Positions 3,403-20,000 of a stretch of 20,000 nt of DNA are shown here, in pieces (the stretch's first letter is position 1; each line of letters begins with the position of its first letter). Location of the stretch: assembly GCF_004010195.1 (NCBI RefSeq), contig NC_057756.1, positions 7,500,246-7,520,245 of the forward strand, given 5' to 3'. The position numbers and the translations under genes are program-made. The notes under the pieces are model-generated. The model saw only the letters and a program-made list of their open reading frames with translations. It made no database searches and was not told where the DNA came from. This DNA is from Chiloscyllium plagiosum. Taxonomy: Eukaryota.

Positions 3403-3469
3403 ATGCTGCAGTTGTTCACCATTGTTGATAAAGTATATTACATCACTATTGCTGCTATTGGCGTCCCTG
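3403..3469 (+). CDS. Coding exon 1 of a GPR139/GPR142-like class A GPCR (copy 1)
   Basis: gcaaaATG gives MLQLFTIVDKVYYITIAAIGVP + G, followed by a consensus donor G|GTAAGT at 3470. The phase-1 junction joins in frame to the acceptor at 6657 to complete TM1 (AAIGVPV-DTLAIVIL). In-frame upstream ATGs at 3322 and 3346 are alternative starts. Confidence 0.82.
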
Positions 3470-3477
3470 GTAAGTCC

Positions 3478-3828
3478 TTTTTTTATGATTCATTCATAGG
3501 ATGTGGGCATCGCCGGCTAGGCCAGCATTTATGGCTCAGAGGGGAGTTTAGGAGTCAGACACATTGCTGTAGGTCTGGAGTCGCATGTTGGTCAGACTAG
3601 GTAAGGATTGCACTTTCCTTCCCGAAAGGACATTAGTGGGCTAGACCGATTTTACCAAAAATCAACAATGATTCATGATTGTCATTAAACTTCTAATTCC
3701 AGATTTTTGTTTACGTTGAATTCAAATTCCATCATCTACCATAGGGAGTCAAATCTGGGTACCCAGTACATTATCGGGGTCTCTGGATTAATAGTCCAGT
3801 GATAATGTTGTGATGCAATTCCCTTCCC
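3478..3828 (-). mobile_element. tRNA-derived SINE (SlmI/MetaSINE-like), antisense in the intron
   Basis: The minus strand reads a decayed tRNA-like head (...ATTATCACTGGACTATTAATCCAGAGACCC...), a central CACTAATGTCCTTTCGGGAAGGAAAGTGCAATCCTTACCTAGTCTGACC block, and a tail GATGCCCACATCCTATGAATGAATCATAAAAAAA. The family name is from recall. Confidence 0.75.
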
Positions 3829-4036
3829 TTAGCCGAACTTTGAAAGTTGCATCAATCTGTGCAATGGAATGCCATGCGAACGTGCTTACAGTTTGCTCAA
3901 AGTATTTACCAATTGTTTTCACTGCAGGTCAGTTAGCGCTGCCATCATCGGACATGCATTATCAGGATTGTTGCAAGTTTTGACTGGAACTTAATGATAG
4001 GAGAATCTCTGTGAGCAGTAGATTGCAGCGATCGGA

Positions 4037-4080
4037 GACTCATAGAGTTATACAACACAGAAACACAGCCTCCAGTCAAG
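4037..4080 (-). mobile_element. Very short CR1 3' tail fragment
   Basis: catagagttatacaacacagaaaca is the reverse complement of the CR1/HER1 terminal tgtttc.gtgctgta..actctatga motif. Confidence 0.55.
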
Positions 4081-4087
4081 CCAGCTA

Positions 4088-4760
4088 TTAAAATGGTGGC
4101 AAGATAAGACACTGTAGTCAGACCGCCTGTCTCTCCAGTTCCTTTTCCTTGTCCTTCCTTTCTTGTCACCAGTTTGCAGTATTTTTTCACACACCCACCT
4201 CTCACCCCCGCCCAACCCTGAAACTTTTAGCTACCCCAGCTGGGGAATGGAGATGAGTCATGACTGGATACACGACAGGGGTGAGCAGGGACGAAGACAC
4301 GGAATGAATCCTCAGGTTACGGCAGTAGGAAATCTTTTTCCCAGAACGGCATGTGGGGAATCTTGACTCCCAGAGTGGTAAGCGGGGAATCCCAAGTTCC
4401 AGAGCAGCATGATGTGAAGCGTCACTAATCTTGTTGCTGCTGAGTGTCGGTGAAGGATTGGGCTGAATGTTGGAGAGATGGGGGACACTTGTGGGCCCTC
4501 GCACCATGTGCTGAGCTGCTGCTGTTGTAATGCTTTACCGGGCTGTAATGTAAACAGCTACCTCATTCCTAACTATACTCAGACACTGTCAGTAATGCTA
4601 CTGCTTCCCTTTTGAAGCTCTTTAGTATAATATCACTGTACTTTTTTTACTCTGTGCGATTTGTACTTGTACCAAAGATGGTATCATTAATTGGCAGCTA
4701 TTGTAAAATCTTTCCACTGTACTCCTGTACTTCTGTACTGGAGGATAAGTGACAACAAAG
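4088..4760 (+). mobile_element. Probable non-autonomous retroposon with an L2/Rex1-like 3' end
   Basis: GC-richer block that starts aaaatggtggc (decayed AAGATGGCGGC) and ends ctttccactgtactc...gtgacaacaaa (decayed GTGACAATAAA tail). No coding signal. Family uncertain. Confidence 0.45.
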
Positions 4761-4801
4761 GATATTAATTATGTATAGTTCTGTTGAGTTGATGACGTGC
4801 A

Positions 4802-7293
4802 AGGAAGACGTTTCCTTGCTTAACACATCTTATTCGAATTATCTTGTTGAACAATTAAGATTTCTCTTTTCAAAGAATAGTTTAGAGAAAGAAGCGCTAA
4901 TATTTCCTAATCTCAGTGAGTTACAGGATGCAGTAAAATGTGTTCACTAACACATCGCCAGTACTGAGGATGTTTTCCAGTCTTCAACATAATTAGTGAT
5001 TCGAAATGTAGTTTCCAAAAATGTAGATAAATATGAGGAGCTAAATTTTAAAAAGGCATATTAGAGCAGGACTTCTTCACTATTTGTCATGGGTCCTGAG
5101 GACTACTGCCTGGCAAACAGATCTTGGAATGCACGTACATAGTTCCTTGAAAGTGGAGTCGCTCATAGACAGGATAGTAAAGGAAGTGTTTAGTTCACTT
5201 GGCTTTAATGGGCCGTGCATTGAGTGTAGGAGTTAGGACGTCATGATGTGGCTGTACACAACATTGGTTCAGCCACTTCTGGAAAACTGCCATTATTCCT
5301 GTTCTCCCTGTGGTAGGAAAGATGCTGTTAAACCTGAAAGTGTTCAGAAAATATTTACAAGGATGTTAACAGGGACTGCAAGTCTGAGCTGTAGGGAGAG
5401 GCTGGATAGGCTAGGCTGTGTTCCCTGGAGCATCGAAGGCTGAGGGGCATGGATAGAGAGTGAATACTCAAGGACTTTTCCCCAGGGTAAGAGAGCCCAA
5501 AGTCTGAGGGCATTGGTTTAAGGTGAGAGGGGCAAGATTTAAAAGGGATCTAAGGTGCAACTTTTTCAAGCAGAGCGTGACGTGTGTATGGAAAGAGCTG
5601 CTAGAGGAAGTGGTGGAGGCTGGTACAAGTACAACATTTAAAAGGCATCTGGATGGGCAAATGCAAAAAAAGGTTTAGTGGGATATTACCTACATACTGC
5701 TAATGGGACTAGATTAATTTGGAATATCTGCTCAGCATGGATGAGTGGACTGAAGGGTCTGTTTCTGTGCTATTCTCAGAGTGACTGAAAGCAATTGCTG
5801 GAGTGTAGCATTGACAGCTGGTTGTGTGCAAAGAGAAAATAAACCATTTGTAAGAACAAGTTAAAATATATACTTTCTCACTTGAAAGAATTCTTCGTTT
5901 TGTCTTATCCTTTGTTAAATTGTTCGATCCATTGACAGCTCTGCTTGGTTATCTTGATGTTCATCAGTGGTTTCATTTGTCTAACAGCAAATTTCAGTTT
6001 CTCAATGGATATCCTTCATCTGTCCAAATCCCAACATCAGATCCACTTGTTGATTGGGTGTGGATCTGATATCTTTTTGCAGGTGCCAATGTTGTCATAT
6101 TCTTGTCAAACATTGTTTAATAAAGTGTCTGTCCTGTAAGGCAGGATTATGACATGTAATGTTCTCAGAGCCATGATTCTGGGCACTATGTTTTTAATAC
6201 GGATATCATTCTATGTCAGCTTGCAATGTGAACATGTGAAAATGAGCCCTTGTAATATTTACATCCGTAACTCTTTGGCTGGGAGAATAGCTTCGTTAAT
6301 TGTTTAGAACACAGAAGTGAAATGGACAGTTTGCTATCCTGCTCATATTTCTGATCTTCCATTCATGGAATGATGTCAGTTAAGCTGATACAACATGTGC
6401 AACCTGATTCTGCACACAGCAGTAACATATTCCACTGACCACTTTCCACCAACATCGCGATTTTGCAGTACTTCATTTTGAACACCGTACACCCACTCCC
6501 TTTGTTTACTGGATGCAGCTAAACATGCAATGGAATCAGGATGAAAATTATTTTTACATTTCAATATTCTTCCTGACTGCCCTAATGTCTTCTCGATTCA
6601 AATAGAAACCTGTTTGACGTACAATTACAAAACTAATTTCAGTTTTCTTTCTTACAGTTGACACATTGGCAATTGTAATCCTGTCTCAAGGAAAATGCGG
6701 CCTCTCCAGACGCACTACTCATTACCTGGTCGCCATGGCAACAGCGGACCTGATGTTCATCATCACTGACGTTATATTGTATCAACTAAATCAGTACTTT
6801 TACCAGGGATCATTCCTATATCTTACACCTGCATGCATTGTGATTCACTTCCTGGTTTATGTGAGTTCAGACTCTTCTGTCTGGTTCACTGTCACTTTCT
6901 CCGCTGATCGGTTTGTGACCATTTGTTGCCGGAAACTGAAACTGAAATATTGTACAGTGAAAACAGCAAATGTTATTCTTTCAACAACCTGCATTCTTTT
7001 CTCTCTAAAAAGTATTCCCATTGTCATGACACGGGAAACTATGATTGTGGTTGACAATGTACATTGGTCTTGTCAAATTAAGGACAGCTATTACACAGAA
7101 CTCGGGTGGATAGTTTATGACTGGTTTCAGAAGGTGTTAACACCATTACTCCCATTCAGTTTAGTTTTACTCTTCAATGCATTGACAGTCAGATACGTGT
7201 TAGTGGCGAATCGGATCCGTAAAAGATTGAGGAGTCAGAACACGGAAGAGAAGTGCAGCGATCCTGAGATGGAGAGCAGAAGGAAGTCAATGA
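4802..7293 (+). repeat. Segmental tandem duplication unit A (3' part of the intron plus exon 2), paralogous to 17136-19757
   Basis: Colinear similarity from tccttgcttaacacat (4813 vs 17148) through the shared CR1 fragment, unique intron sequence, the acceptor and the exon up to agaaggaag.caatgat. Confidence 0.93.
5003..5785 (+). mobile_element. CR1/HER1-type LINE 3' fragment in the intron
   Basis: Encodes decayed LYTTLVQPLLENC...ESVQKIFTRML...RERLDRLG. Ends in gactgaagggtctgtttctgtgct. Confidence 0.88.
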
Positions 7294-7568
7294 TTTTACT
7301 GTTCACTATATCGGGTAGCTTTATATTGTTGTGGTCACCCTATGTGATAATTTTCATATATTATCAAATTGCAGCACTTGATCCCAAATATTACAACAAT
7401 AGTTTGCATGTATTTGAAAGAATTGGATACATGCTGCTAAGTTTGAGTTGCTGCGCAAATACGTTTATTTATGGAGTAACTCAGTCAAAGTTCCGGGAAC
7501 AGTTCATTCGCTCTGTAAAATACCCACTGACTGCAATCAATCGAGTCTTTACTTTTAGAATGAATTGA
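6658..7568 (+). CDS. Main coding exon 2 of a probable G-protein coupled receptor 139-like (rhodopsin family 7TM) gene; spliced product 325 aa
   Basis: Uninterrupted ORF with hydrophobic TM segments: TM2 YLVAMATADL, Cys at the top of TM3 (TPAC), SVWFTVTFSADRF (DRY-like), ECL2 Cys (WSC), TM5 LTPLLPF...N, TM6 FILLWSP, TM7 SCCANTFIY (NPxxY variant) and helix 8 SKFREQF. The GKCGLS..T.YL and SVW.TV...DRF signatures fit the GPR139/GPR142 group. Confidence 0.93.
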
Positions 7569-8386
7569 TTTAGATCTTTAAGACAGTGCCACATACGACT
7601 GTTTTCCTAAGTGTAGCATTGAATAGTAAATGTCAATGACATTATTTGTATCAAGAATGTTGGGTCATATGAAATTATTAACAGCATTCCATTCAATTAG
7701 ATGTTACTTTGATTTGTATTTATAATACTGAGACAAGATTTTTAATCTTCACTTGATGGAAGCGTAACAAACCATTTGTTCAAGAAAGCAGCCACAGACA
7801 CAGAGGAAAATCTCCAACAAATCGACAGTCAGAAGTGAATTAAGCAGATTGCATTCCATCAAAGAGGTCGCACCGAATTTAACCACGGGGCCCCTCATTA
7901 GTGTTAGCAGTGAATTGCAAACGAGTCCACTCACATTCTGTCTGCTCCATTTCAGTTTTGTTTTGCAAAAACCTTACCTCTCATTTCATTTACCTCAGAA
8001 ATGATCTGTTAGTGTCCGAAATTATGTTATTATTGAACAGCTCAGACACGAAACAGAAATCAGGATTGCTTGTTCATGTTTATTTCCTTTCTCATTTAAC
8101 GTGGTCGGCTTTCAGTGAAAGATAAGTCTGCAACTCTGCACAATTGGTTTTAATAATGAAAAAGGACAGGATTAAAGTCAATGAAAATAATGAGAAAGTA
8201 TCTGTGCTCTTCACATACAAGAAAGTTTAAAAAATTTCAAAGGATATGACAAAAATATTTTGCCATTTCGCTTTACTGTACTCAAATGAGAGAGTTTCGT
8301 TCTGTGCAACATCTATAGCTCTGACTTAGCTGCTTCTTTCACTTCCTGTTCTTGGTACTTTGTTAAACTGCCTTTTGATTATCACA

Positions 8387-8694
8387 CAACGGTGACTCAG
8401 TGGTTAGCACTGATGCCTCACAATGAGAAGGACACGGGTTCAATTCCTGCATCGGGCAACTGTGGAGTTTGCACATTCTCCCCGTGTCTGCGTGGGTTTC
8501 CTTCGAGTGCTCCGCTTTCCTTCCACAATCCAAAGATGGTCAGGTCAGGTGAATTGCCTATACTGTTAGTTGCATTAGTCAGTGGTAAATAGAAGATAGG
8601 GTCTTGGATCTGGGTGGGTTACTTTTCAGAGGGGCGGTGTGGACTTGTTGTGCTGAATGGCCTGTTTCCACACTGTAAGGAATCTAATCTCAAA
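8387..8694 (+). mobile_element. HE1-type tRNA-derived V-SINE
   Basis: A box TGACTCAGTGG (8393-8403), B box GGTTCAATTCC (8437-8447), V-domain tgtggagtttgcacattctccccgtgtctgcgtgggtttcc, LINE-derived 3' end ggcctgtttccacactgta and an (ATCTA)n tail. Confidence 0.92.
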
Positions 8695-8912
8695 ATACTT
8701 AGCAGCAAAGGACCAGACCTGATTTGTAACCAAAGATCTCTGGCCTGGAATTTTCACATTACTACACTTGTAGTAGGATAACAGTTTCAAACTGTTCTGA
8801 ATGAATTCTTGCCTGGAAGCAAATCTGTTTCAAACTTACCTTCTTCCAGGCTCTGTGAACTGCCATCAATGCCACACATGTTACGTTTCTCATTTCACAA
8901 GAAAATCTTGTT

Positions 8913-9138
8913 ACAGATTCAATCAATAAGCACATCGACCTGGACCCAATATACCGACCACTGCAACGGAAAGCTGGAACTGACAACCGGAAGCGGCAGA
9001 TTCAAACCACTATAAATGCCGGAGGAAAGATCACAGAAGCGCTTCACAGGGAGGCTCCCAAGCACTGAGGATGTCACCTAGACAGGGGACAAAACGTCTG
9101 CAACACATATTCCCATCTCGGCGAACACATCCACAACA
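8913..9138 (+). mobile_element. Penelope-like element 3' end / pseudo-LTR fragment
   Basis: Translates TDSINKHIDLDPIYRPL, resembling the C-terminus after the PLE GIY-YIG domain. Carries a hammerhead-like motif. Same family as 10660-10743 and 19885-20000. Confidence 0.75.
9062..9101 (+). ncRNA. Degenerate minimal type I hammerhead ribozyme motif
   Basis: GCA-CTGAGGA-T-GTCACC-TAGACA-GGGGAC-AAAA-CGTC-TGC: stem I GCA/TGC, core CUGANGA, stem II, palindromic ACGT stem III and a GUC site. GAAA is mutated to AAAA. Confidence 0.7.
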
Positions 9139-9139
9139 T

Positions 9140-9323
9140 TCTCCTTTAGGATCAATTCTAACAATTTTGCCTTAAGAGTCACCAGGCTAACTAACCTACA
9201 TTTCCTGCTTTCCATAACCTTCCCTTCTTCAAAGAAAAACTTAGTTACTTTGTAATCTCATTGAACCTTCCCAGATTTGGTTCTGAATTTTAGAATATTG
9301 ACACCAACACATCTATTATCTCA
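9140..9323 (-). mobile_element. Old CR1 RT fragment
   Basis: The minus strand contains aggttagttagcctggtgactcttaaggcaaaattgttagaattgat, a decayed R.VSL....KLLE motif. Confidence 0.55.
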
Positions 9324-9344
9324 TGAGTTAGTGAGAACATGGCG

Positions 9345-9500
9345 TCACAGAACTGCACAGCATGGAAATAAACCCATTAGTCCAACTCATCCGTGCCAAG
9401 CAGATATGCAAAATTAATCTGGTCCTATTGGCCAGCATTTGACCCATATGCCTCTACCCCCTTCCTATTCTTGCACCCACCCAGATGCCTTTTCAACGTT
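9345..9500 (-). mobile_element. CR1/HER1-type LINE 3' fragment
   Basis: Reverse complement of the 3' end seen at 5635-5775 (cagcatggaaa...gtccaactcatcc...cccagatgccttt). Confidence 0.85.
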
Positions 9501-9672
9501 CTTTTAACAGGTTGCATTGGTTAATTCGAGCCACAATTTCTAATTTTCTATGACTTTGACTTAATCAGCACTGACCGACTGAATTGTCACCGACTCACAC
9601 ACAGACAGTCACAGCCTGAGTCCCCTCTGCTGGGGACTGTACATGTTTACACACACAAACTCACACACACAC

Positions 9673-9878
9673 CTTCAGAGAGGACAGTATCGCAGTATCC
9701 CCTTATTGTACATGCCACTTACCCAGCTAGCTCAATACCAGCTCCTTGAGTGAGTAGACCCCCTGATGCTCTTGTTTATGTCAGTCAGTCAGGACTTACT
9801 GTTGAAACAGGTTAACACCCCCAATCAGGGAATTCATATTCTGAGATCCACCTGGCTGACTTTGTTCCAATAACCACA
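9673..9878 (-). mobile_element. Probable decayed solo LTR (Gypsy-type)
   Basis: The minus strand starts TGTGGTTATT...GTCAGCCAGGTGGATCTCAGAATATGAATTCCCTGATTGGGGG, with TATA-like CATAAA and polyA-like AATAAG. It resembles a common shark LTR (recall). The 3' CA end and TSD were not resolved. Confidence 0.5.
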
Positions 9879-10659
9879 ATCGGCCTGCCTCTGTCTTCAT
9901 TGGATAACTGTAGTTTTGTTCAAAATAAATTCATTAAAGACAACTGATTATTTGAGCTCTTTGTCCTCAATGCGACATAGAAAAGTGTCCAATTGACCGT
10001 ATCAGAACAAGATAAAACAATTCCATTTTACTGTGACATCAGAGAGTAAGATGGCCTTCCTACCTGTATTCCCACTACCGTTCTGGTATTACCTTCCCTT
10101 AGAGAAATAGGAACTCAATTGAGCATGAATATGAAATTATCTTTAAATTGCAAAGCAAAGCAATTGTTAAAGAATACTGTATGTCAGTCACAAAAGGAAC
10201 ATGTTTATAAAGAACTAGGATTTATGAAAGGCCAAAAGTATTTCATGGTAGGATTCACCCCGAAACCGTGGCACTGAACCCTACGTAGAAATAATATGAT
10301 AGAGAATCAAAAGTCAACCTTAAACATAGTCCCAAAAGAGAGATTGACAAAGAGAGTTCTGAGACATGCACCTTTAACGATTAAGGAGTCAGCAATGTTG
10401 CAGATTCAGTTGTTGCTGAAAATCTTTAACACAAAGTGCATTTTTGTAACTTTCTAACCAGAGGGTGATGGACACTGATTCACATCATACACACGAGACA
10501 CGTGCAATCTGATGTTGGACAAAGAGGTGGTCATGGTATCATCGGTATGTTACAATGTGGAATTAAAGTCATAATCTTATCAGCTTTGGGCTTAGTCAAT
10601 ATCGGTATAGCCTTTAGATTTCAGATGACCTACCCCTACTGACTCATATGGCCAGATGT

Positions 10660-10743
10660 ACGTTTGCAACACAAATTCCCAGCTCGGCAAACAGACCACA
10701 ACAACGAGCACCCGAGCTACAAATCTTCTCACAAACTTTGAAC
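10660..10743 (+). mobile_element. Penelope-like terminal fragment (sequence downstream of the hammerhead)
   Basis: acgtttgcaacacaaattcccagctcggcaaacagaccacaac aligns to 9094-9137 and 19981-20000 and extends further 3'. Confidence 0.75.
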
Positions 10744-10759
10744 CTGAAGGAGAATCTCA

Positions 10760-10900
10760 TTGGAAAACTTGGGAAGAGTCAGCTGGAATTTTTGAAATGG
10801 AGATTAATTTTAGTCAACTCCCCAGAATTGTTTGAATGTGTTACGTTTGCTATTGATAAAGGGGAGCTCATTGATGTATTTCATTTGGATTCCAAGGTCA
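10760..10900 (+). mobile_element. Old CR1 RT fragment
   Basis: Translates to ...ELFECVTFAIDKGELIDVFHLDSK, a decayed EFFE.VT..VDKG..VDV.YLDF.K motif. Confidence 0.7.
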
Positions 10901-13891
10901 CTGTACAAGAAGGACGAGTTGCACCTGAACTGGAGAAGCACCAATATCCTGGGAGGGAGGTTTGCTGGAGCTCTTTGGGATAATTTAAACTGGATTGGCA
11001 GGAGCTTGGGAACCTGAGCTATGGACCTGATAATGGATTAGGTAGTGAACAGTTAGATATAGCGTGCAGAGAGTCTGTGATGAGGGATCGGCACTTGATA
11101 GGGCTACGGTGCAGTCAGTGTGATGGAATAAGTGTGGTGAACTAAGCGCACAGATCAGTATTAGGACATATGATGTTTTGGCCATTACGGAGACTTGGAT
11201 ATTACAGTGGTAGGAATGATTGTTCGATATTCCAGAGTTTAGATGTTTCAAAAGGAATGGGGGTGGGGGCGTGGAGGTAAAGGAAGTGAAGGGGTGGCAT
11301 TGCTAATCAGTGAGAGTGTTACTGCTGTCGAAAGGGAAGTCGTCGAAGACGATTGAGTATGCGTGGAAGTCAGAAACTGGAAAGGAGCAGTCACTTAATT
11401 TGGAGTTTTCTCCAGGCCCTCCTATAGCAACAGAGAGATGGAGGAGCAAATTGGGAGGCAGAAATTGGAAAGGTGCAGATGTAATAGGGTTGTTGTCTTG
11501 AGTGACTTTAACTTCTCTAATATTGATTGGAACCTATTAAATTCAATTAGTTTGGATGGAGCAGTTTTTGTCAGTGTGTCAAGGAAGGATTTCTGACACA
11601 ATATTTAGATAGGGCAAGTAGAGGCGAGGCCAATTTGGATTTGGTGTTTGGCACCGAACAGGCCAGTTGGCCCACCTCTCGGTGGAAGAACATTTCAGTG
11701 ACAGTGATCACCACTCCCTGACCTTTGCTGCAGTCAAGAAGAGGGTCAGGGGAAAATGGTATGAGAAAGTAATTGGGTGTGAGGGAATTTCAATGCTAGT
11801 AGGCAGGAATTGAGGCACCTAAATTGGGAACAAATGTTCTAAGGGAGATGGACAACAGAAATGTGGAGGTTGTTTAGGAAGCATGTGCTGATAGTGCTGG
11901 GCAGGCTTTTCTCACTGAGGCAAGGAAGGCATGATATTTTGAAAGAAACTTGGATGACTTGGAATGAGGAACATCTCGTCAAGAGAAAGAAAGGAACTTA
12001 CTTAAGGTTGAGGAGGCAAGAATCAGACAAGGCTTTAGAGGGTTACAGGGTAGCCAGGAAGGAACTGAAGAATGGACTTAGGAGAACTGGAAGGGGGCAT
12101 GAAAAAGCTTTAGTGGATAGGATAAAGAAAACCCTAAGGCATTCTACACTTATATGAGGAACAGGAGGATGGTCAGACTTGGGGAAGGCCGGATCGGAGG
12201 TAGTAAAGGGAACTTGCTCTTGGGATCAGAGGAAGTAGGGGGAGGTCCTTATTGAATGTTTTACTTTAGTATTCACTACTGAGTGAAACCTTGATGCTTC
12301 TGAAGAGAGCATGAAACAGACTGCTATGCTCAAATAGATTGATGTACTGAAGAAGGATGTACTGAAAATTTTGAAAAATATCAAAATAGATAAATCTCCT
12401 GGACCAGATGTCATCTATCCAAAGTTTCTACAGGAAGACAGAAAAGAGATTGTTGTGCGTTTGGAAATGATTTTTTTGTGTCCTCACTGTTCACTGGAGT
12501 AGTGCCAGATTGGCAACTATTATTCCCTTATTCCAAAAAGGGAATAGGGATAATCCTGGCAATTACGGACCAGTCAGTCTAACTCCAGTAGTGAGCAAAC
12601 TATTGGAGAGGATTCTGAGAGAAAGGATTTATGGTTACTTGGAAAACCGCAGTTTGATTTGAGATAGTCAGCATGACTTTGTGAGGGGCAGGTCATGCCT
12701 CACAAACGTTAGTGAATTCTTTGAAATGTGACAAAACACATTGTTGAAGATAGAGCAGTGGATGTGGTGCCCATGAGATATAGCAAGGCATTTGCTGAGG
12801 TTTTTCATGGTAGGCCTATTCAGAAAATAAGGAAATTTAGCTGTCTGGATACAGACTTGACTGGCCGATGGTGGTAGGAGATGGAAAGTATTCAGCGTGG
12901 ATCTCAGTGACAAGTGGTGTTTCACTGGGACCTTTGCTCTTTGTGATTTTTATAAATGACTTGGATGAGAAAGTGGAAGGGTGGGTTAGTAGTTTTGCCG
13001 ATAACACGAAGGTTGGCTAGTGTGGAGGGTTGTTTTAGGTTGCAACCGGACATTGAGAGAATGCAGAGCTGGGCTGATAACTGGCAGATGGAGCTCACCC
13101 TGGAAAGGTGTGAAGTGATTCACTTTGGAAGTTAAAATTTGAATGCAGGGTTAAAGGCTGGATTCTTGGCAGCGTAGAGGAATAGAGGAATCTTGGGATC
13201 TACGTCTAAAGAGCCCTCAAAGTTGCCACTCAGATTGATAGATTTGTTCCAAAGGCCTATGGTGTGTTGGCTTTCACTAGCAGGGTGATTGAGTTCAAGA
13301 GCCGTGAGGTTATGCTGCAGCTCTAAAGAGCTCTGGTTAGACCACACCTGAAATATTGTGTTCAGTTCTGGTCGCCTCATCATAGGAAACATCTGGAAAC
13401 TTTAGAGAGGGAGCAGAGGAGATCCAGGATGCTGCTTGGACTGGAGGGCATGTCTTCTGAAGAAAGGTTAAGGGGCCAAAGCTTTTCTCATTGGAGCAAA
13501 GAAGAATGAGATGTAACTTGATAAAGATGTACAGGATGTTAACAGCCATCGATAGAGTGGATAGGCAGTGACTTTATCGCATGGCAGAAACGTCCATCAT
13601 TCGGAGCATGGTTTAAGGCATTTGAAGGAATGTTTAGGGCAGATGTTTGCAGTCAGTTCCTTGCACATAAATTAGTGCGTGCATGGAATGCACTGTCAGT
13701 AGTAGTAGTAGTAGTAGAGTCAGATACATTAGGGGCATTTAAGCAAATCTTGGATAGGCACACGGGACATAGTACAATGAATGGTATGTAGCTTAGTCTG
13801 ATCTTAGAGCAGTATGAACGGATGGCACAACACTGAGTGCCCAATGACCAGTACTGTGCTGTACCGTTCTCTGTTCTATGTTCTGTGTTCT
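10901..13891 (+). mobile_element. Long decayed CR1 LINE: end of ORF1 esterase, APE endonuclease, RT, 3' UTR and tail
   Basis: LYKKDELHLNWRSTNILGGRFA (SGNH esterase DxxH block), AITETW (~11181), DFNFSNIDW (~11503), SDH (11703), KSPGPD (12392), NY.PVSLT, FADNTK (12994), VRPHL.YCVQFWSP and a (GTTCTAT)n-like tail at 13866-13891. Confidence 0.93.
13698..13717 (+). repeat. (AGT)n microsatellite inside the LINE
   Basis: agtagtagtagtagtagtag, 6 full units plus AG. Confidence 0.9.
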
Positions 13892-15262
13892 TAGCTGAAG
13901 CCCAACGGGACTTCAAACAGGCACTACAACTTGAAAATGCGGCAAGTGGACCATTTGAGTTCCAGGGTATTCTGACACAAGTGGACATCCTCAGTAGGAC
14001 AACTGAGCTTGGGGGACACCACTTAAGTGAAAGTATTTGCATAGCGTCACTAAGGAGATATCCTGAACAGAGGGTCATCAGGTCAGCCCACATCAAAATC
14101 CCGAAACAAAGCCAAGTCCTGATCAAATTTTCTCAACAATCCAGGCCAGCAGGCCATTGTAGTTGCTGCTGGTATGCGAACTTGAAGATTCTGCACTGCC
14201 TGAATTAAACAAGAGAGCTCACAAGCCAGTATACAGAGTAGTGCACACCCTGGAACGTTCACCTTTAGCTGGTTTTGAACAGTGAAATTGTGTTGCAACA
14301 ACCAAATCAGAACCCCAACAAAATAAACGTCTAGCTAAATGGTCTCCAGTTCTCATGGACTTTGAAACAAATGTGCTTTTTTCAGTCTTGAACAAAATTC
14401 GCTCTGGACTCAAATCCTTAAGACCTTGGCCAGACTGAGAGTCTATGCTGGGAAACCTTTACAGACAAAGGGAACAACTTTGATTCTGGTCTGTTATGAG
14501 AAGCAACTGGTTCATTTCGCATTGGTTGTAGTAAAAGGCTCGGGCCCAAGCCTGATGACCCTGATTTTTTGAGAAACTTTCAAATGAATTAGCTCAACAT
14601 TTTTCGACTAGAATATGCTGGCTGAATGAAGTCCTTATTAATACCCAGACGTTTCTCAGGAAAATCGAGGAACTGTCAAACGGGTGTAGGGCACCTTATA
14701 TGTTGACCAGGAAACAAATCCATGATTCTGCAAGTCCCACGCAGTGCCATTTGCCTTACGGGCAAAAGGAGAGGCAGAAATCCAGGAAGTTGGAAAGGGA
14801 AGGAAGATTGAACCTGTCTACTTTGCAGAATGGGCAGCACTGGCCTACTGATTGTGAAGCCCAAAGGGTTGTTTTGTGATTGTGGGGATTTAAAGCAAAG
14901 TGTAGACTGCTTTTCACAGCTGGCTGAATACCCAGCCTTGTGCGTACTGGGCTCATATGAAAAACTGGCAAGAAGTTGTTCCTTCACAAAACTGGATGAT
15001 CCATGTGTACAAGTGGTTAGATGAGGAATCCCAGATGTATGCAACAATTCATGCCCATAAAGGTTTGTACTAATATACGAGACTGCCATCAGCCTGTGCC
15101 ATTTTCCAACTGACAATGGAGAGCATTTTCCTAGAGATACCCCAAGTCTGCATTTATCTGGGTAATGTGTCAAGAAAGAGAAAAATCAATAAAGTGCACT
15201 GAGAGAACTTGGAAACGACGCTTAAACATTTCTCCAAGTTGAGTGCACATTTCAGGAAGGAA
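13892..15262 (+). mobile_element. Decayed Gypsy/Ty3 LTR-retrotransposon internal region (gag, protease, RT)
   Basis: Gag-like LAEAQRDFKQALQLENAASG, protease-end VVKGSGPSLM (~14527), and RT motifs VPFALR, EWAA (14828), IVKP...CGDLK, FTKLD, HKGLY.YTRLP, AIFQ.TME and YLGN in place of YLDD (15155-15166). Confidence 0.85.
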
Positions 15263-15279
15263 GGTATCCGTATAAATAA

Positions 15280-16440
15280 CATCCATTGACTTACTTCTGC
15301 CCACCAGCATTGTCACCTCTTTAATACTGAACTTTGCAGGCGTGACCTAACCTCTATGAATCTATGCTGACTCTCTCTGATTAGCAGGCATTTTTGAAGC
15401 GATTGTTACCCTACTCTTGATTACAGATTCTAACAATTTCCCCATCACAGAAGTCAGGCTGACTCATCTGTAATTCCCTGGTTTCAATCTGTCTCCCGTC
15501 TCAAAGAGTGGAATGACATGAGCAAATTTCCAAATCCAGAGGTACAACTACTGAATCCAGGGAATTCTGAAACATTATGGTGAGGACATTGGCAAAATGT
15601 TCTCCTACCTCCTTTAATGCCCACAGATGGAAGCCATCAGAATTTGTCATCTACAATTCAATTCATTTCATAGAAGATCATAGAATCTCGCCAGTGTGCA
15701 ACCAGGCCTTTCGGCTCAACAAGTCCACACCGACCTTCTGAAGAGTAACCGATCCAGACCCATTCCCCTACCCAATGACTCTCCATTAACCCCTCATTAA
15801 TGCACCTGACCTGCACATCACTGAATACTGTGGGCAAAGTAGTGTGGGCAATTAACTTAAACTGCTCATTTTTGGATTGTGGGAGGTAACTGGAGCACAC
15901 AGAGGAAACCCACGCAGACACCGGAAGAATGTGCAAACTCCACACAGGCAGTGGCTCGGGGCTAGAATCAAGCCTGGATCCCTCACGCTGTGCTGCAGCA
16001 GTACTAAACACTGAGCTGCCGTGCTGCCCCATTTCCCCATTACTGATGATATATTTTTGCTGATTTTATTGAGATATTGCCCTGATCTTCTATTACTTAC
16101 TGTGAAACTTCCAGCAGACTACCCTTCTTTTCTGGTCTCAATCCTGAAACAAATTAATCGTTCAGCATGTCTGCTATTTCAACACTATCATTGAAAATAT
16201 CCCCACTCTCAGCCTTCAGTGGGGACCAGCATTAATCTAAGCAGCTGCATTCCCTTTCTCTAACCAGAAAATCATTTCTTACTGTATTTTACATTCTGTG
16301 GATATTTCCTTTCATCATCCTTTTTAGCTGATCTGATAAACTGCTTTGTGACCTACCATGTCAATCCATATCTTTGTCACTTGCTGTGGGACGTGGTGAT
16401 GGTTCTCTGTGTTTTTTTTCATTTTATGCTGCTCTTGACT
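15280..16440 (-). mobile_element. Decayed CR1 ORF2 fragment, interrupted by an HE1 SINE
   Basis: The minus strand gives DGFH..LKEVGE, FQNSLDS.VVPLD, VIPLF, KPGNYR.VSLTSVMGKLLESVIK (15400-15640). Weaker linker-region similarity continues at 16040-16440. Confidence 0.75.
15670..16029 (-). mobile_element. HE1-type tRNA-derived V-SINE
   Basis: The minus strand starts GGGCAGCACGGCAGCTCAGTGTTTAGTACTGCTGC, has the V-domain TGTGGAGTTTGCACATTCTTCCGGTGTCTGCGTGGGTTTCC and the tail GATTCTATGATCTTCTAT. Candidate TSD CATTTC at 15664-15669 and 16030-16035. Confidence 0.92.
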
Positions 16441-16623
16441 TGTTTGATCTGGAAGGGTTAGTGCACTGCAGAAATGATGGAACAGTTGCTAAAGACGAAT
16501 GATGAATGGAGATATTATTTCTAAATATTCGTTGCAATTCTCCCACTGTTAGCTTTTTTCTAAAAAAAAAACTTGCTACGCACAGTATTTATCTTTGAAA
16601 GATAGTGCTGTTGTTTTTTTATT

Positions 16624-16860
16624 GAGTAGAGGAGATTGAGAGAGGATATGATCGAAGTGCATAAAATTATAAGGGGCATGGACAGGGTTGATAGGAAAAA
16701 CATTTTCTCCTTCATGGTGAGATCAATGTGCAGGGGCATAGACTTAAGTGAGGGGCAAAGGTTATTAGAGGAGATGCGAAGTAAACACTTGGTCGCATTC
16801 AGGGTAGATGGAATTTATAAGAATGTTACCAACACTGGACAGCTTGAATTTTAAGGAGTG
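16624..16860 (+). mobile_element. CR1 3' fragment
   Basis: RRLREDMIEVHKIIRGMDRVDRK, the CR1 ORF2 C-terminal motif. Confidence 0.8.
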
Positions 16861-16866
16861 ACTGGA

Positions 16867-17135
16867 TAGAGTCAGAGCCAGAGTCATACAGCATGAAAAC
16901 ACGGGACCTTTTTCCCTGAAACTTTGGAGGCTGAGTGGAGACCCTTTTGAGTTCAATAAACTCATGAGGGGCATGGAAAGGTTGAATAGGCAAGGTCTTT
17001 TCACCAGGGTAGGGGGTGTTCAAGGTAGAGGGCATAGGTTTAGGGTGAGAGGGGAAAGTTTTAAAAGGGACCTAAGGATGAACGTTTTCACGCAGAGGGT
17101 GGTGCATATGTGGAATGAGCTGCCAGAGGAAGTGG
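16867..17135. mobile_element. Antisense CR1 tail (16867-16902) joined to a sense CR1 3' fragment (16903-17135)
   Basis: agagtcatacagcatgaaaaca is a reverse-complement tail. It is followed by MRGMERLNRQGLF...RGHRFRVRG..FKRDLR.NVFTQRVV..WNELPEEV on the + strand. Confidence 0.75.
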
Positions 17136-17607
17136 AGGATGATGATGTCCTTGCTTAACACATTTAATCCCTCCTTTTTTTGTTGAACAGTTACAGGGTT
17201 TTTCTTTCAAAGAATAGTTTACAGCAAGAAGCGCTGATATTTCCATTCTCAGCGAGTGACATGAATGGAAAGCAGTGAAATCCATTCACTAACATATTGC
17301 TAGTACTAAGGATGTTTTTTCCGGTTTTCAACGTAATTAGTGATTTGAAATGTACTTTCCAGAAATTTAGACAAATGTAACAAGTTTTGGAAAGGCAAAT
17401 CGGGACAGGACTTCTACACTTAATGGTAAGGTCCAGAGGGCCGTTGCCAAACAAAGAGACCTTGGGGTACAAGTTCATAGTTCCTTGAAAGTGGAGTCAC
17501 ACGTTGACAGTATAGAAAAGCAGATGTTTAATACACTTACCTTTTTTGGCAGTGCGTTAGTATAGGAGTTGGGATGTCATGTTGTGGCTGTACAGATGTT
17601 GGTTCGG

Positions 17608-17710
17608 GGAGAAAGTGAGGACTGCAGATGCTGGAGATCAGAGCAGCAGGTCAGGCAGCATCCAAGGAGCAGGAGAATCGACGTTTCGGGCATAAGCCCT
17701 TCTTCAGGAA
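17608..17710 (-). mobile_element. Short non-autonomous Penelope-derived (retrozyme-like) element with a 9-bp TSD
   Basis: Flanked by perfect TTGGTTCGG direct repeats (17599-17607 and 17711-17719). Absent from the paralogous site (single ttggttcag at 5264-5272). Carries a hammerhead motif. Confidence 0.88.
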
Positions 17711-17711
17711 T
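17676..17711 (-). ncRNA. Minimal type I hammerhead ribozyme motif with intact catalytic core
   Basis: Minus strand ATTC-CTGAAGA-A-GGGC-TTAT-GCCC-GAAA-CG-TC-GATT: CUGANGA, a perfect 4-bp stem II, GAAA, a palindromic ACGU stem III and a GUC triplet (predicted cut between 17680 and 17679). Confidence 0.85.
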
Positions 17712-19145
17712 TGGTTCGGCCAATTCTAGAAAATTACGATCAATTCTGCTCTCCCTGCTCCAGGAAAGATGGTGTTAACTTTGAAAGTGTGCAAAAAAGA
17801 TTTACAAGGATGTCGCCGGTGTTGGAAAGTCTGAGCTACAGGAAAAGGCTGGATAGGCTGGGGTTTTTCTTCATGGAGCACCGAAGGCTGAGGGGCATGG
17901 ATAGAGTGACTGGTCAAGGTATTCCCTCCAGGGTGAGAGAGTCGAAATCTAGATGGCATTGGTTTAAGGTGAGAGGGGAAGGGGTTAAAAGGGATTCTAG
18001 GGGCAACGTTTTCATGCAGAGGGAGATGCATGTATGGAATGAACTGCCAGATAAAATGGTGGAGGCCGGTGCAAATTCAACTTTTAAAAGGAATCTGGAA
18101 GGGCACATCAGCAGGGTGATTTGAGAGGAATATTGGCTAAATTCTGCAAAATGGGACTTGATTAATTTAGGATATCTGTTCAGTGTGCACGAGTTGAACT
18201 GAAGGGTCTGGTCCCCTGCTGTACATCTCAATGACTCTAAGTGACTGAAAGCAATTGTTGGGGGCTTGGGGTACAGAATAGACAATTGGTTGTGTACATG
18301 GAGAGAGCAAACCATGTGCAAGACCAAGTTTAAATATATACTTTCTCGTATGAAAGAATTCTTTATTTCTCTTATTTTGAAGGCAGCCTTTGTTAAACTG
18401 TTCAATCACTTGACAGCTTCATTTGATTATAGTTATGTTCATCAATGGGTTCATTTATCTTACAGCATATTTCAGTTTTTCAGTGGTTATCCCACTGTCC
18501 TTCATGCGGCCAATCCCAAACCATAGGTCCACTTGTTGATTAGTGTGTGAATATGGTCTCTTACCACGAGTGCTGCTGTTCTCATATTCCTGTGGGACAT
18601 TATTAAGAATGCGTCTGTCCTGTAAGACATGATTATTTAATGTAATGGTGTCAAATTCATGATTCTGAACATCACATTTGTAATGTGATGTCATTCAATG
18701 TCAGCTTGCATTGTGATCATGTTAAAATGAGTCCTTAGAACATTTAAATCCAAAGCTCCTTGGCTAGAAGGACAGCTTGGTTAATTGTTGAGAACACAGA
18801 AATACAGTTTTATACCTTGTTCATTTTTGAAATATTCTTCCATTAACAGAATGATGCGCATTAAGCCAATAGAACATGTTCAATCTGATTTTGTATACAA
18901 TATGTTTTAGTAACATATTCAACTGACCAATTTACACCTACATAGAGATGTTATAATCCTTCATGTTCAACACCACGAACCCATACTCTTTGTTCATATG
19001 ACACAGCTTAATATGGGATGGAAACAGTATTAAAATTCCTTTTACATATTAATATGCTTCCTGATAGCCCTAATGCAATCTCGACTCAAATGGAAGACTG
19101 TTCAAACTGCAATTGCTAAACTAATTTCAGTTCTCCCTCTTACAG

Positions 19146-19757
19146 TTAATGCACTGGCAATTGTAATTCTGTCCCTCAGAAAATGCGGCCTCTGCAGATG
19201 CAATACTCATTACCTGCTGGCCATGGCAACAGCGGATCTGATGTTCGTCATCACTGATGTCATATTGTATCAACTGAATCAGTACTTTTACCAGGGATCA
19301 TTCCTGCACCTCACACCTGTATGCATTGTGATTCAGTTCCTGCTTTTAATGAGATCTGACTGTTCTGTCTGGTTCACTGTCACTTTCTCCGCTGGTCGGC
19401 TTGTCACCATTTGTTGCCGGAAAGTGAAACTGAAATATTGTACCGTGAAAACACTAGCTTTTCATTCTAAAAAAATGCTTCCATTTTCATAACACAGGGA
19501 CCCATGATTGTGGTTGACAATGTACAGTGGTCTTGTCAAATGAAGGCCAGCTGCTATACAGAAGTCGCACGGATGGTTTATGACTGGTTTGATTAGGTGT
19601 TAACACCATTACTCCCATTCAGTTTAGTTTTGCTCTTCAACGTTATGACAGTCAGATACGTTTTAGTGGTGAGTCGGATCCGTAAAGGATTGAGGAGTCA
19701 GAACATGGAAGAAAAGCGCAGTGATCCTGAGATGGAGAGCAGAAGGAAGGCAATGAT
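19146..19757 (+). pseudogene. GPR139-like GPCR pseudogene (copy 2, exon 2)
   Basis: Acceptor ttacAG at 19145. Highly similar to copy 1 (VNALAIVILSLRKCGL...AMATADL). DRF is changed to GRL. 30 nt of TM4 are replaced by CTAG (19454-19457) and there is an extra A in the run at 19469-19475, giving TAA at 19490. In-frame TAG at 19594-19596. Interrupted by a retroelement at ~19758. Confidence 0.92.
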
Positions 19758-19878: not shown

Positions 19879-19884
19879 GATAGG

Positions 19885-20000
19885 GAGGGACAGACCACTG
19901 TAAACACCGGAGGAAACATCAAAGAAGCGCTTCGCAGGAGGCTCCCAAGCACTGACGATGTCGCCTAGCCAGGGGACGGAACTTTTGCAACAAAAACTTC
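19885..20000 (+). mobile_element. Penelope-like terminal fragment with a degenerate hammerhead (19949-19988); runs off the window
   Basis: accactgtaaacaccggaggaaacatcaaagaagcgcttcgcaggaggctcccaagcactgacgatgtcgcctagccaggggacggaac aligns with 9006-9095. Confidence 0.8.

Follow-up and report, generated by a model that had tools for sequence, protein, structure and literature searches.

A 103-bp hammerhead-bearing insert in a GPCR cluster of the shark Chiloscyllium plagiosum is probably a young, truncated end of a very abundant Penelope-like element

The stretch of 20,000 nucleotides of the Chiloscyllium plagiosum genome analysed in this work (hereafter, the window) contains a 103-bp insert carrying, on the minus strand, the motif of a hammerhead ribozyme. 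This raises the question of whether the insert is a mobile element in its own right or a piece of a larger one, and of what produced its 5' end, which lies just upstream of the ribozyme core. The first-pass annotation regarded it as a separate SINE-like element mobilised in trans. According to the data reported below, the insert appears instead to be a young truncated end of a very abundant Penelope-like element. More precisely, we assign a probability of about 0.88 to its being the 5'-truncated, internally deleted pseudo-LTR (pLTR) plus tail of this high-copy element, likely written by the element's own reverse transcriptase (RT)/GIY-YIG protein; the observed basis for this is the identity of the end block to ORF-bearing copies, the target-site duplication, the empty sites and the distribution of the ends.

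The insertion itself is real, as previously annotated: 103 bp separate two perfect 9-bp copies of TTGGTTCGG (Table 1). The undeleted form of the family measures about 128 bp, and the 3' edge of the 25-bp deletion that is private to the window insert coincides with the tail boundary. The deletion junction exhibits a microhomology of 2 nt with respect to the commonest parent type and of 5 nt with respect to a rarer one; it was matched only once in the genome, both as a 26-mer and as a 19-mer, so that the 103-bp form is single-copy and does not make up a family. The insert is the smallest form of the family, lacks an inverted partner and is a monomer, no tandem arrangement being found at the locus. 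Neither a tRNA gene nor an exact pol III A or B box was found for it, the latter in agreement with the annotation, and no terminal inverted repeats were detected. Thus, a tRNA-derived SINE was rejected for the lack of a tRNA-like head and of A/B boxes, and a DNA transposon or MITE for the lack of terminal inverted repeats. The insert is predicted to have been dead on arrival.

Table 1. Coordinates of the features discussed in the text (positions within the window)
Feature	Position	Strand	Basis or remark
Intact two-exon rhodopsin-family GPCR gene	3403..7568	+	exon 1 3403-3469, exon 2 from 6658; Pfam 7tm_1
Paralogous empty site (LINE fragment, intron of the intact GPCR gene)	5264..5272	+	TTGGTTCAG, 8/9 identical to the duplication
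Host LINE 3' fragment, common to the paralogues, interrupted by the insert	17400..18210	+	approximate bounds
Left copy of the 9-bp target-site duplication	17599..17607	+	sequence
Insert: probable 5'-truncated Neptune-like Penelope pLTR plus tail, with a private 25-bp internal deletion	17608..17710	-	sequence comparison
35-nt tail (optional 3' extension of Penelope inserts)	17608..17642	-	tail as described in PMC11167929 and PMC8557442 (available text)
25-bp deletion junction	17638..17647	-	one genome occurrence
Minimal type I hammerhead motif	17676..17711	-	core read from the sequence, plus descriptor match
Hammerhead stem I	5' strand 17711-17708; 3' strand 17679-17676	-	U.U mismatch
Hammerhead CUGAAGA; extra A	17707-17701; 17700	-	
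Hammerhead stem II, GGGC/UUAU/GCCC	17699-17688	-	4 bp
Hammerhead GAAA; CGUC	17687-17684; 17683-17680	-	ACGU self-complementary, without loop III
Predicted cut	17680/17679	-	would leave a 5' end at 17679
Right copy of the duplication	17711..17719	+	base 17711 also fits the element template (1-nt microhomology)
Exon 2 of the filled paralogue	19146..19757	+	frameshifted and interrupted

The interrupted LINE fragment, presumably of the CR1 type, is embedded in a tandem GPCR cluster of eight two-exon paralogues spanning 160 kb and sharing 81-93% DNA identity, every one of which has the same intronic fragment. The empty site indicated by the first-pass annotation within the intact gene is indeed uninterrupted; its supposed identity to the duplication did not hold, since it reads TTGGTTCAG (eight positions out of nine), while the 22 uninterrupted LINE homologues of the target site among the loci examined read TTGGTTAGG. 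The site is empty and uninterrupted in all six alignable GPCR paralogues, the seventh having a local deletion without insert; hence, the insertion postdates the gene duplications, as previously proposed, and can be dated cleanly in this respect. Moreover, the flanks are 77-82% identical between paralogues and each block of the insert differs by 0-2 bases from family members, which implies that the insertion is much younger than the duplications. The paralogue holding the insert upstream is a broken gene: the region 7600-17300 revealed no exon 1, while exon 2 is frameshifted and split by about 3.3 kb of inserted repeats, from position 19757 to about 23110 (into L119). The closest homologous proteins with a name come from cartilaginous fishes. 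As for DNA contigs, two records from organism A span the right junction, extending 25 nt into the element, and one record from organism B matches 17710-17810, followed by 26 unlike letters; bridging of an insertion junction required 31 letters, a length of which all these records fall short, so that the lack of the insert in organism B is a hint only.

The minus strand of the insert harbors the type I order of CUGANGA, stem II, GAAA and NUH core, together with the extra nucleotide 9/10.1, the G10.1-C11.1 pair and a palindromic, loopless stem III. The minimal-hammerhead descriptor retrieved one match in the 20-kb window and none in 300 order-1 Markov resamples, in agreement with the complete core of a Penelope-type minimal hammerhead noted at first sight. 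The check with hammerhead models proposed at the same time failed when carried out with Rfam, which retrieved no hammerhead in the window (E<=1) or in 17500-17850 (E<=10) and gave two chance matches only. In subfamily A, to which the window copy belongs, stem I pairs C-G, U-A, U.U and A-U, that is, two base pairs, a mismatch and one base pair, the outermost A (17711) being common to the element and the duplication; in the sister subfamily C all four positions are paired. In nine family representatives, whose stem pairs were read by a script (two MAFFT alignments had misaligned stem II), stems I and II vary in pairs, 15.2-16.2 flips between CG and GC, and one stem I pair is broken in representative H; from these paired changes and the flip of the stem III palindrome, the motif looks to be under selection in the source elements. 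These nine were gathered with the same descriptor, and the conservation of the core among them is therefore obtained by construction. In 25 long subfamily A copies, core mismatches amount to 1.5% per site versus 5.1% elsewhere.

As a monomer, the window motif is predicted to be inactive: since loop III is absent, folding would be possible only with a second copy, and stem I of the insert, a monomer, is weak. The ribozyme would then be a passenger in the window insert. According to the available text of the two relevant papers, published minimal hammerheads showed no cleavage as monomers and weak cleavage as dimers (PMC4209133), and cleavage by the anole hammerhead required protein (PMC11167929).

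The two window blocks closely match long copies of the family, showing 0/69 and 0/35 mismatches with L005, 1/69 and 0/35 with L014, and 1/69 with L030. RT coding sequence lies upstream of the block in L014, and GIY-YIG coding sequence in L030, whose stop codon is 153 nt before the core. Going upstream from the block, long copies have a 3' UTR of about 150 nt and then a GIY-YIG-like domain; the RT motifs through YIDD are located 976-1151 nt upstream of the core, in the same sense, in four of the five loci holding them. On the other side, 37 nt separate the tail from an ATG, located about 162 nt after C3, and an open frame of more than 300 residues follows. Since the ORF starts past the tail and the same block recurs about 150 nt after the ORF stop, the block represents both the leader and the 3' pLTR. 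The insert thus shares sequence with the ends of an autonomous Penelope-like element (PLE), a check suggested by the first-pass annotation, and these data support its proposal that a Penelope RT/GIY-YIG machinery would have made the insertion.

The GIY-YIG pieces, probed directly against Pfam, scored 21.7 and 20 bits versus a cut-off of 22.6 (E 2.5e-4 and 8.7e-4), and Pfam gave no match for four pieces (two from the RT region, one RT-thumb/EN and one N-terminal). A protein search retrieved 37 relatives among 828 candidates; in one of these, at 46% identity, the RVT_1 and GIY-YIG domains both exceed the Pfam cut-offs. With the RT piece, the PDB sequence search returned nothing significant and the protein atlas gave no result; the N-terminal RT piece yielded 38,788 first-look candidates genome-wide, 150 of which were scored. 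A CxxxxCxxC linker lies between RT and EN in L088 and L030, and a zinc-finger-like RT-EN linker is common to Neptune and Nematis (PMC8557442); the linker fits the Neptune/Nematis type and the element can be described as Neptune-like. In the 20 long candidates, all of which contain assembly gaps, neither a gap-free full-length pLTR-ORF-pLTR copy nor an open frame of 450 residues was found, so that the ORF was tiled from pieces. Ahead of the RT, the ORF also includes a long N-terminal stretch containing a tandem repeat rich in Thr/Ala/Pro (L267:1510-2620, L270).

The family is very large. Exact genome matches were 61,754 for the core pattern, 70,294 for the 28-mer downstream of the cut site, 45,944 for the tail pattern, 19,439 for the 28-mer directly upstream of the core and 917 for the ORF-start pattern, with no match for any of the reversed controls; the core, tail, flank and ORF-start patterns span different sets of subfamilies, and the counts represent a rough profile. 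In the DNA search, 803 candidates were considered and 40 of them yielded a total of 58 matches. Among 139 cores, 57 belong to long copies, 44 to short copies with an inverted partner, 35 to solo short copies, and three are at gaps. Automated searching recognised duplications of 7-16 bp in 10 of the 35 solo copies, compared to 10 of 1190 mismatched flank pairings. The 3' ends form two groups separated by about 35 nt: of 86 subfamily A copies, 48 terminate at 85-97 nt and another 34 at 121-126 nt, in agreement with the two RT start sites described for the anole element. A pLTR at both ends of the ORF, an optional tail of 30-40 nt and inverted truncated partners are all seen in the family.

The 5' ends were mapped using the motif downstream of the cut as anchor, in 99 of the first 100 listed copies of one chromosome. 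In 39 of them the end lies 0-10 nt upstream of C3 and in another 24 it is inside the core, with four cases at 11-52 nt upstream, four within 3 nt of the cut and one further down; the remaining copies are long (24) or run into gaps (three). The commonest end of the family is at +3 to +5, where 30 of the 72 short 5' ends are located (p about 2e-26 versus a uniform distribution), as are 12 of the 24 without an inverted partner; a core-anchored sample concurs, with 57 of 100 5' ends within 10 nt. In the window copy, the end is at +3 (+4 if the shared base is counted). Hence, the position of its minus-strand 5' end 3 nt before the core, as described in the first-pass annotation, is correct; it is not a special mark of the insert, being the modal end of truncated copies. 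Moreover, just one of the 72 short ends falls within 1 nt of the cut, which, together with the clustering at +3 to +5, implies that cleavage did not make the 5' end of the insert.

RNA data were considered as well. None of the listed records containing the locus is registered as RNA, which speaks neither for nor against expression. No read of run X22 mapped on the family reference, so that this run provides no test. In run X21, of which about 2% was covered, 3,474 reads mapped on the family reference in both orientations, and 95% of them run on into unlike sequence. No pile-up of starts or ends, including at the cut site and at the proposed RNA 5' end, was detected in this run, which is poly(A) single-cell and a poor test of 5' ends; the RNA 5' ends anticipated at 17679 thus did not emerge, in keeping with the genomic ends.

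On these grounds, we can depict the following scenario for the origin of the insert. The GIY-YIG endonuclease would have nicked the LINE fragment with a 9-bp stagger, and the RT would have started internally in the RNA, at the tail end, as seen in vitro for the anole element. At the tail boundary, it may then have jumped from one short repeat to another, leaving out 25 nt, unless these nucleotides were lost later. Synthesis would have come to a halt 3-4 nt upstream of the core, the place at which most short copies end.

The independent ribozyme-bearing SINE-like element originally proposed, copied from a short RNA of its own and mobilised in trans, is in our opinion improbable. The 103-bp form is single-copy, a similar junction is found in three genome copies, and its blocks are 0-2 mismatches away from autonomous long copies. 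Furthermore, in the 84 subfamily A copies of one chromosome arm used for the comparison, haplotypes are common to short and long copies, with no short-only haplotype in the sample, and the haplotype of the window insert is shared by three long and three inverted-short copies. It is true that short copies outnumber long ones (as judged from the downstream and upstream 28-mers), that solo copies with duplications are common, that dispersed loci of a sister subfamily carry ORF-less units, and that solo copies could be transcribed if the promoter were internal, as in the Penelope of D. virilis (PMC2377424). Nevertheless, the insert lacks pol III boxes and also the ORF-start sequence that, according to the available text, the anole protein required in vitro (PMC11167929), and the family reads mostly run into unlike sequence and lie in both orientations.

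Two further explanations were considered. A longer tandem insertion might have shrunk by recombination to a solo pLTR with the duplication kept; partial tandems do occur in the family, and rotifer solo pLTRs have been so explained, though they lack duplications (PMC3846280, available text). The window copy is nevertheless very young (0-2 mismatches) and the solo ends coincide with those of the inverted copies, a match that recombination would not be expected to give, so that we consider this origin very improbable. It is hardly credible, in turn, that the insert is a retrozyme monomer, i.e., the cDNA of a hammerhead-excised RNA, even if its hammerhead is of type I and animal retrozymes have been argued to derive from pLTRs (10.64898/2026.07.22.740005, available text): a cleavage product would begin at 17679, whereas the insert retains the whole core, short ends at the cut are nearly absent and there is no tandem at the locus. 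The ends thus contradict this origin, unless a circle was reverse-transcribed from another starting point. The truncated pLTR plus tail of an autonomous element hence remains the reading that we adopt.

Within the reading of a truncated pLTR, the cause of the stop 3-4 nt upstream of the core has to be considered separately. The RNA likely starts at the commonest 5' end of the family, 3-4 nt before the core, and run-off at this RNA 5' end is the cause that we prefer, with roughly even chances. The stop falls at the outer edge of helix I; in subfamilies A and B, it also matches the position of the motif YYATTCC, which we take to resemble a pol II initiator. In the Penelope of D. virilis, the promoter is internal and includes an initiator (PMC2377424, available text). 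An RT stall or a fold-back of the cDNA at a hairpin formed by the upstream pyrimidine tract and the core, in the same element, might also account for the stop, with chances clearly short of even. A hairpin whose loop covers +3 to +5 was predicted in both of the subfamily A copies folded with their natural upstream sequence; as many as 20 of the 24 ends inside the core (among 99) are beside an inverted copy, and Penelope inversions have been attributed to self-priming (PMC3846280, available text). On the other hand, the concentration at +3 to +5 is no weaker in solo copies, which lack an inversion (12 of 24), several tandem junctions join ORF-start sequence to the same point, and subfamily B has short ends near the same place, yet the folded B copy showed no hairpin. 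Two other candidates were set aside: a DPE-like element, since its spacing, judged by eye, is off with respect to the consensus in the available text of PMC2377424, and a cap-derived extra G, since 14 of 20 ends at +4 follow a G and many of these are explicable by the inverted partner, the duplication or a template variant.

A Penelope end bearing a hammerhead is of a known kind (Cervera 2014; Frangieh 2024). The minimal hammerhead is the same kind as the min-HHRs in the pLTRs of metazoan PLEs (Cervera and De la Pena 2014, PMC4209133), from which the window motif differs in having a 4-bp helix II and a U.U mismatch in helix I; sharks are not named in the available text of that paper, which reports 4,000-9,000 motifs in coelacanth and Xenopus, to be compared to the 61,754 exact matches of the shark family with the caution that the counting methods differ. 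The closest similarities are with Poseidon PAc of Anolis carolinensis (Frangieh et al. 2024, PMC11167929), in which, according to the available text, the hammerhead likewise heads the RNA leader, two 3' ends lie 30-40 nt apart (the tail), RNA-seq ends are absent at the cut site and cleavage is dispensable for insertion. In contrast, the ATG is located past the tail in the shark family and at stem II in Poseidon PAc, and the CxxxxCxxC linker of the Neptune/Nematis type sets the shark element apart. The main text on Poseidon PAc does not mention any pile-up of 5' ends at helix I, and its Fig. S2 may show the boundary. The available descriptions of the canonical EN+ PLE unit include a pLTR, a tail, an adjacent inverted 5'-truncated copy and an 8-10 bp duplication (PMC8557442, PMC3846280); these forms are all present in the shark family, including the 9-bp duplication and a microhomology deletion. 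In the literature covered by our search, which left out most subscription papers and the repeat databases, none was found on a family of the shark type or on a 5'-end pile-up.

Non-LTR retrozymes and the hammerhead SINE-like repeats of Schistosoma (10.64898/2026.07.22.740005; PMC6765202) are also short, non-coding and Penelope-related, with a type I hammerhead; as far as the available text describes them, they form head-to-tail arrays of a family unit, whereas the window insert is a single-copy truncation. The units of subfamily C fit the retrozyme class better than the window insert does. In this subfamily, a junction between ORF-start and pre-core sequence occurs at 40 places in the genome, and 20 loci holding it (L301-L320; e.g., L302, L308, L312 and L316) consist mostly of units of about 224-320 bp that lack an ORF and are arranged head to tail, with 1-6 hammerheads, the compound junctions recurring between dispersed loci. 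Some of these loci may be artefacts, since in five of the 20 an assembly gap comes first and the sequence after it starts at the same base. Non-autonomous derivatives thus appear to exist in the clade of the window element; the window copy, a monomer of subfamily A, does not have the subfamily C junction.

A more speculative scenario, which we regard as doubtful, would place an RNA initiator at the 5' edge of helix I and the RT start 90-125 nt downstream, so that tens of thousands of strong-stop cDNAs integrate as promoter-plus-ribozyme cassettes, some of them being transcribed anew and re-mobilised. If this were true, Penelope elements would beget SINE-like and retrozyme families, and the tandem units of subfamily C would be a step caught in the act.

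The single locus matters little: it lies upstream of a broken GPCR paralogue, and dead short copies like it number in the thousands. The family, in turn, provides more than 60,000 natural Penelope-like integration products with mapped 5' and 3' ends. That the cDNA stops just before the ribozyme, and not at the cut, bears on the role of the Penelope hammerhead, and the family makes the question of RNA start versus RT stall directly testable.

Other repeats were observed in the window and in the loci examined. A second hammerhead-bearing family, likely another Penelope family, is represented by three decayed remnants in the window (8925-9135, 19880-20000 and 10654-10722, plus strand), with GAAA lost at about 9091; intact versions are found in L002, L243 and L280. 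At least five further minimal-hammerhead families (L041, L076, L237, L248, L269, L286) were recognised, some with AGCU rather than ACGU as stem III palindrome. Lastly, the window contains a SINE-like repeat that occurs twice, in opposite orientations and with 79-83% complementarity (8385-8690, plus strand; 15680-16030, minus strand), and that we take to resemble a shark tRNA-derived SINE, and, at about 13900-15270, a decayed fragment that by eye corresponds to the pol region of an LTR retrotransposon.
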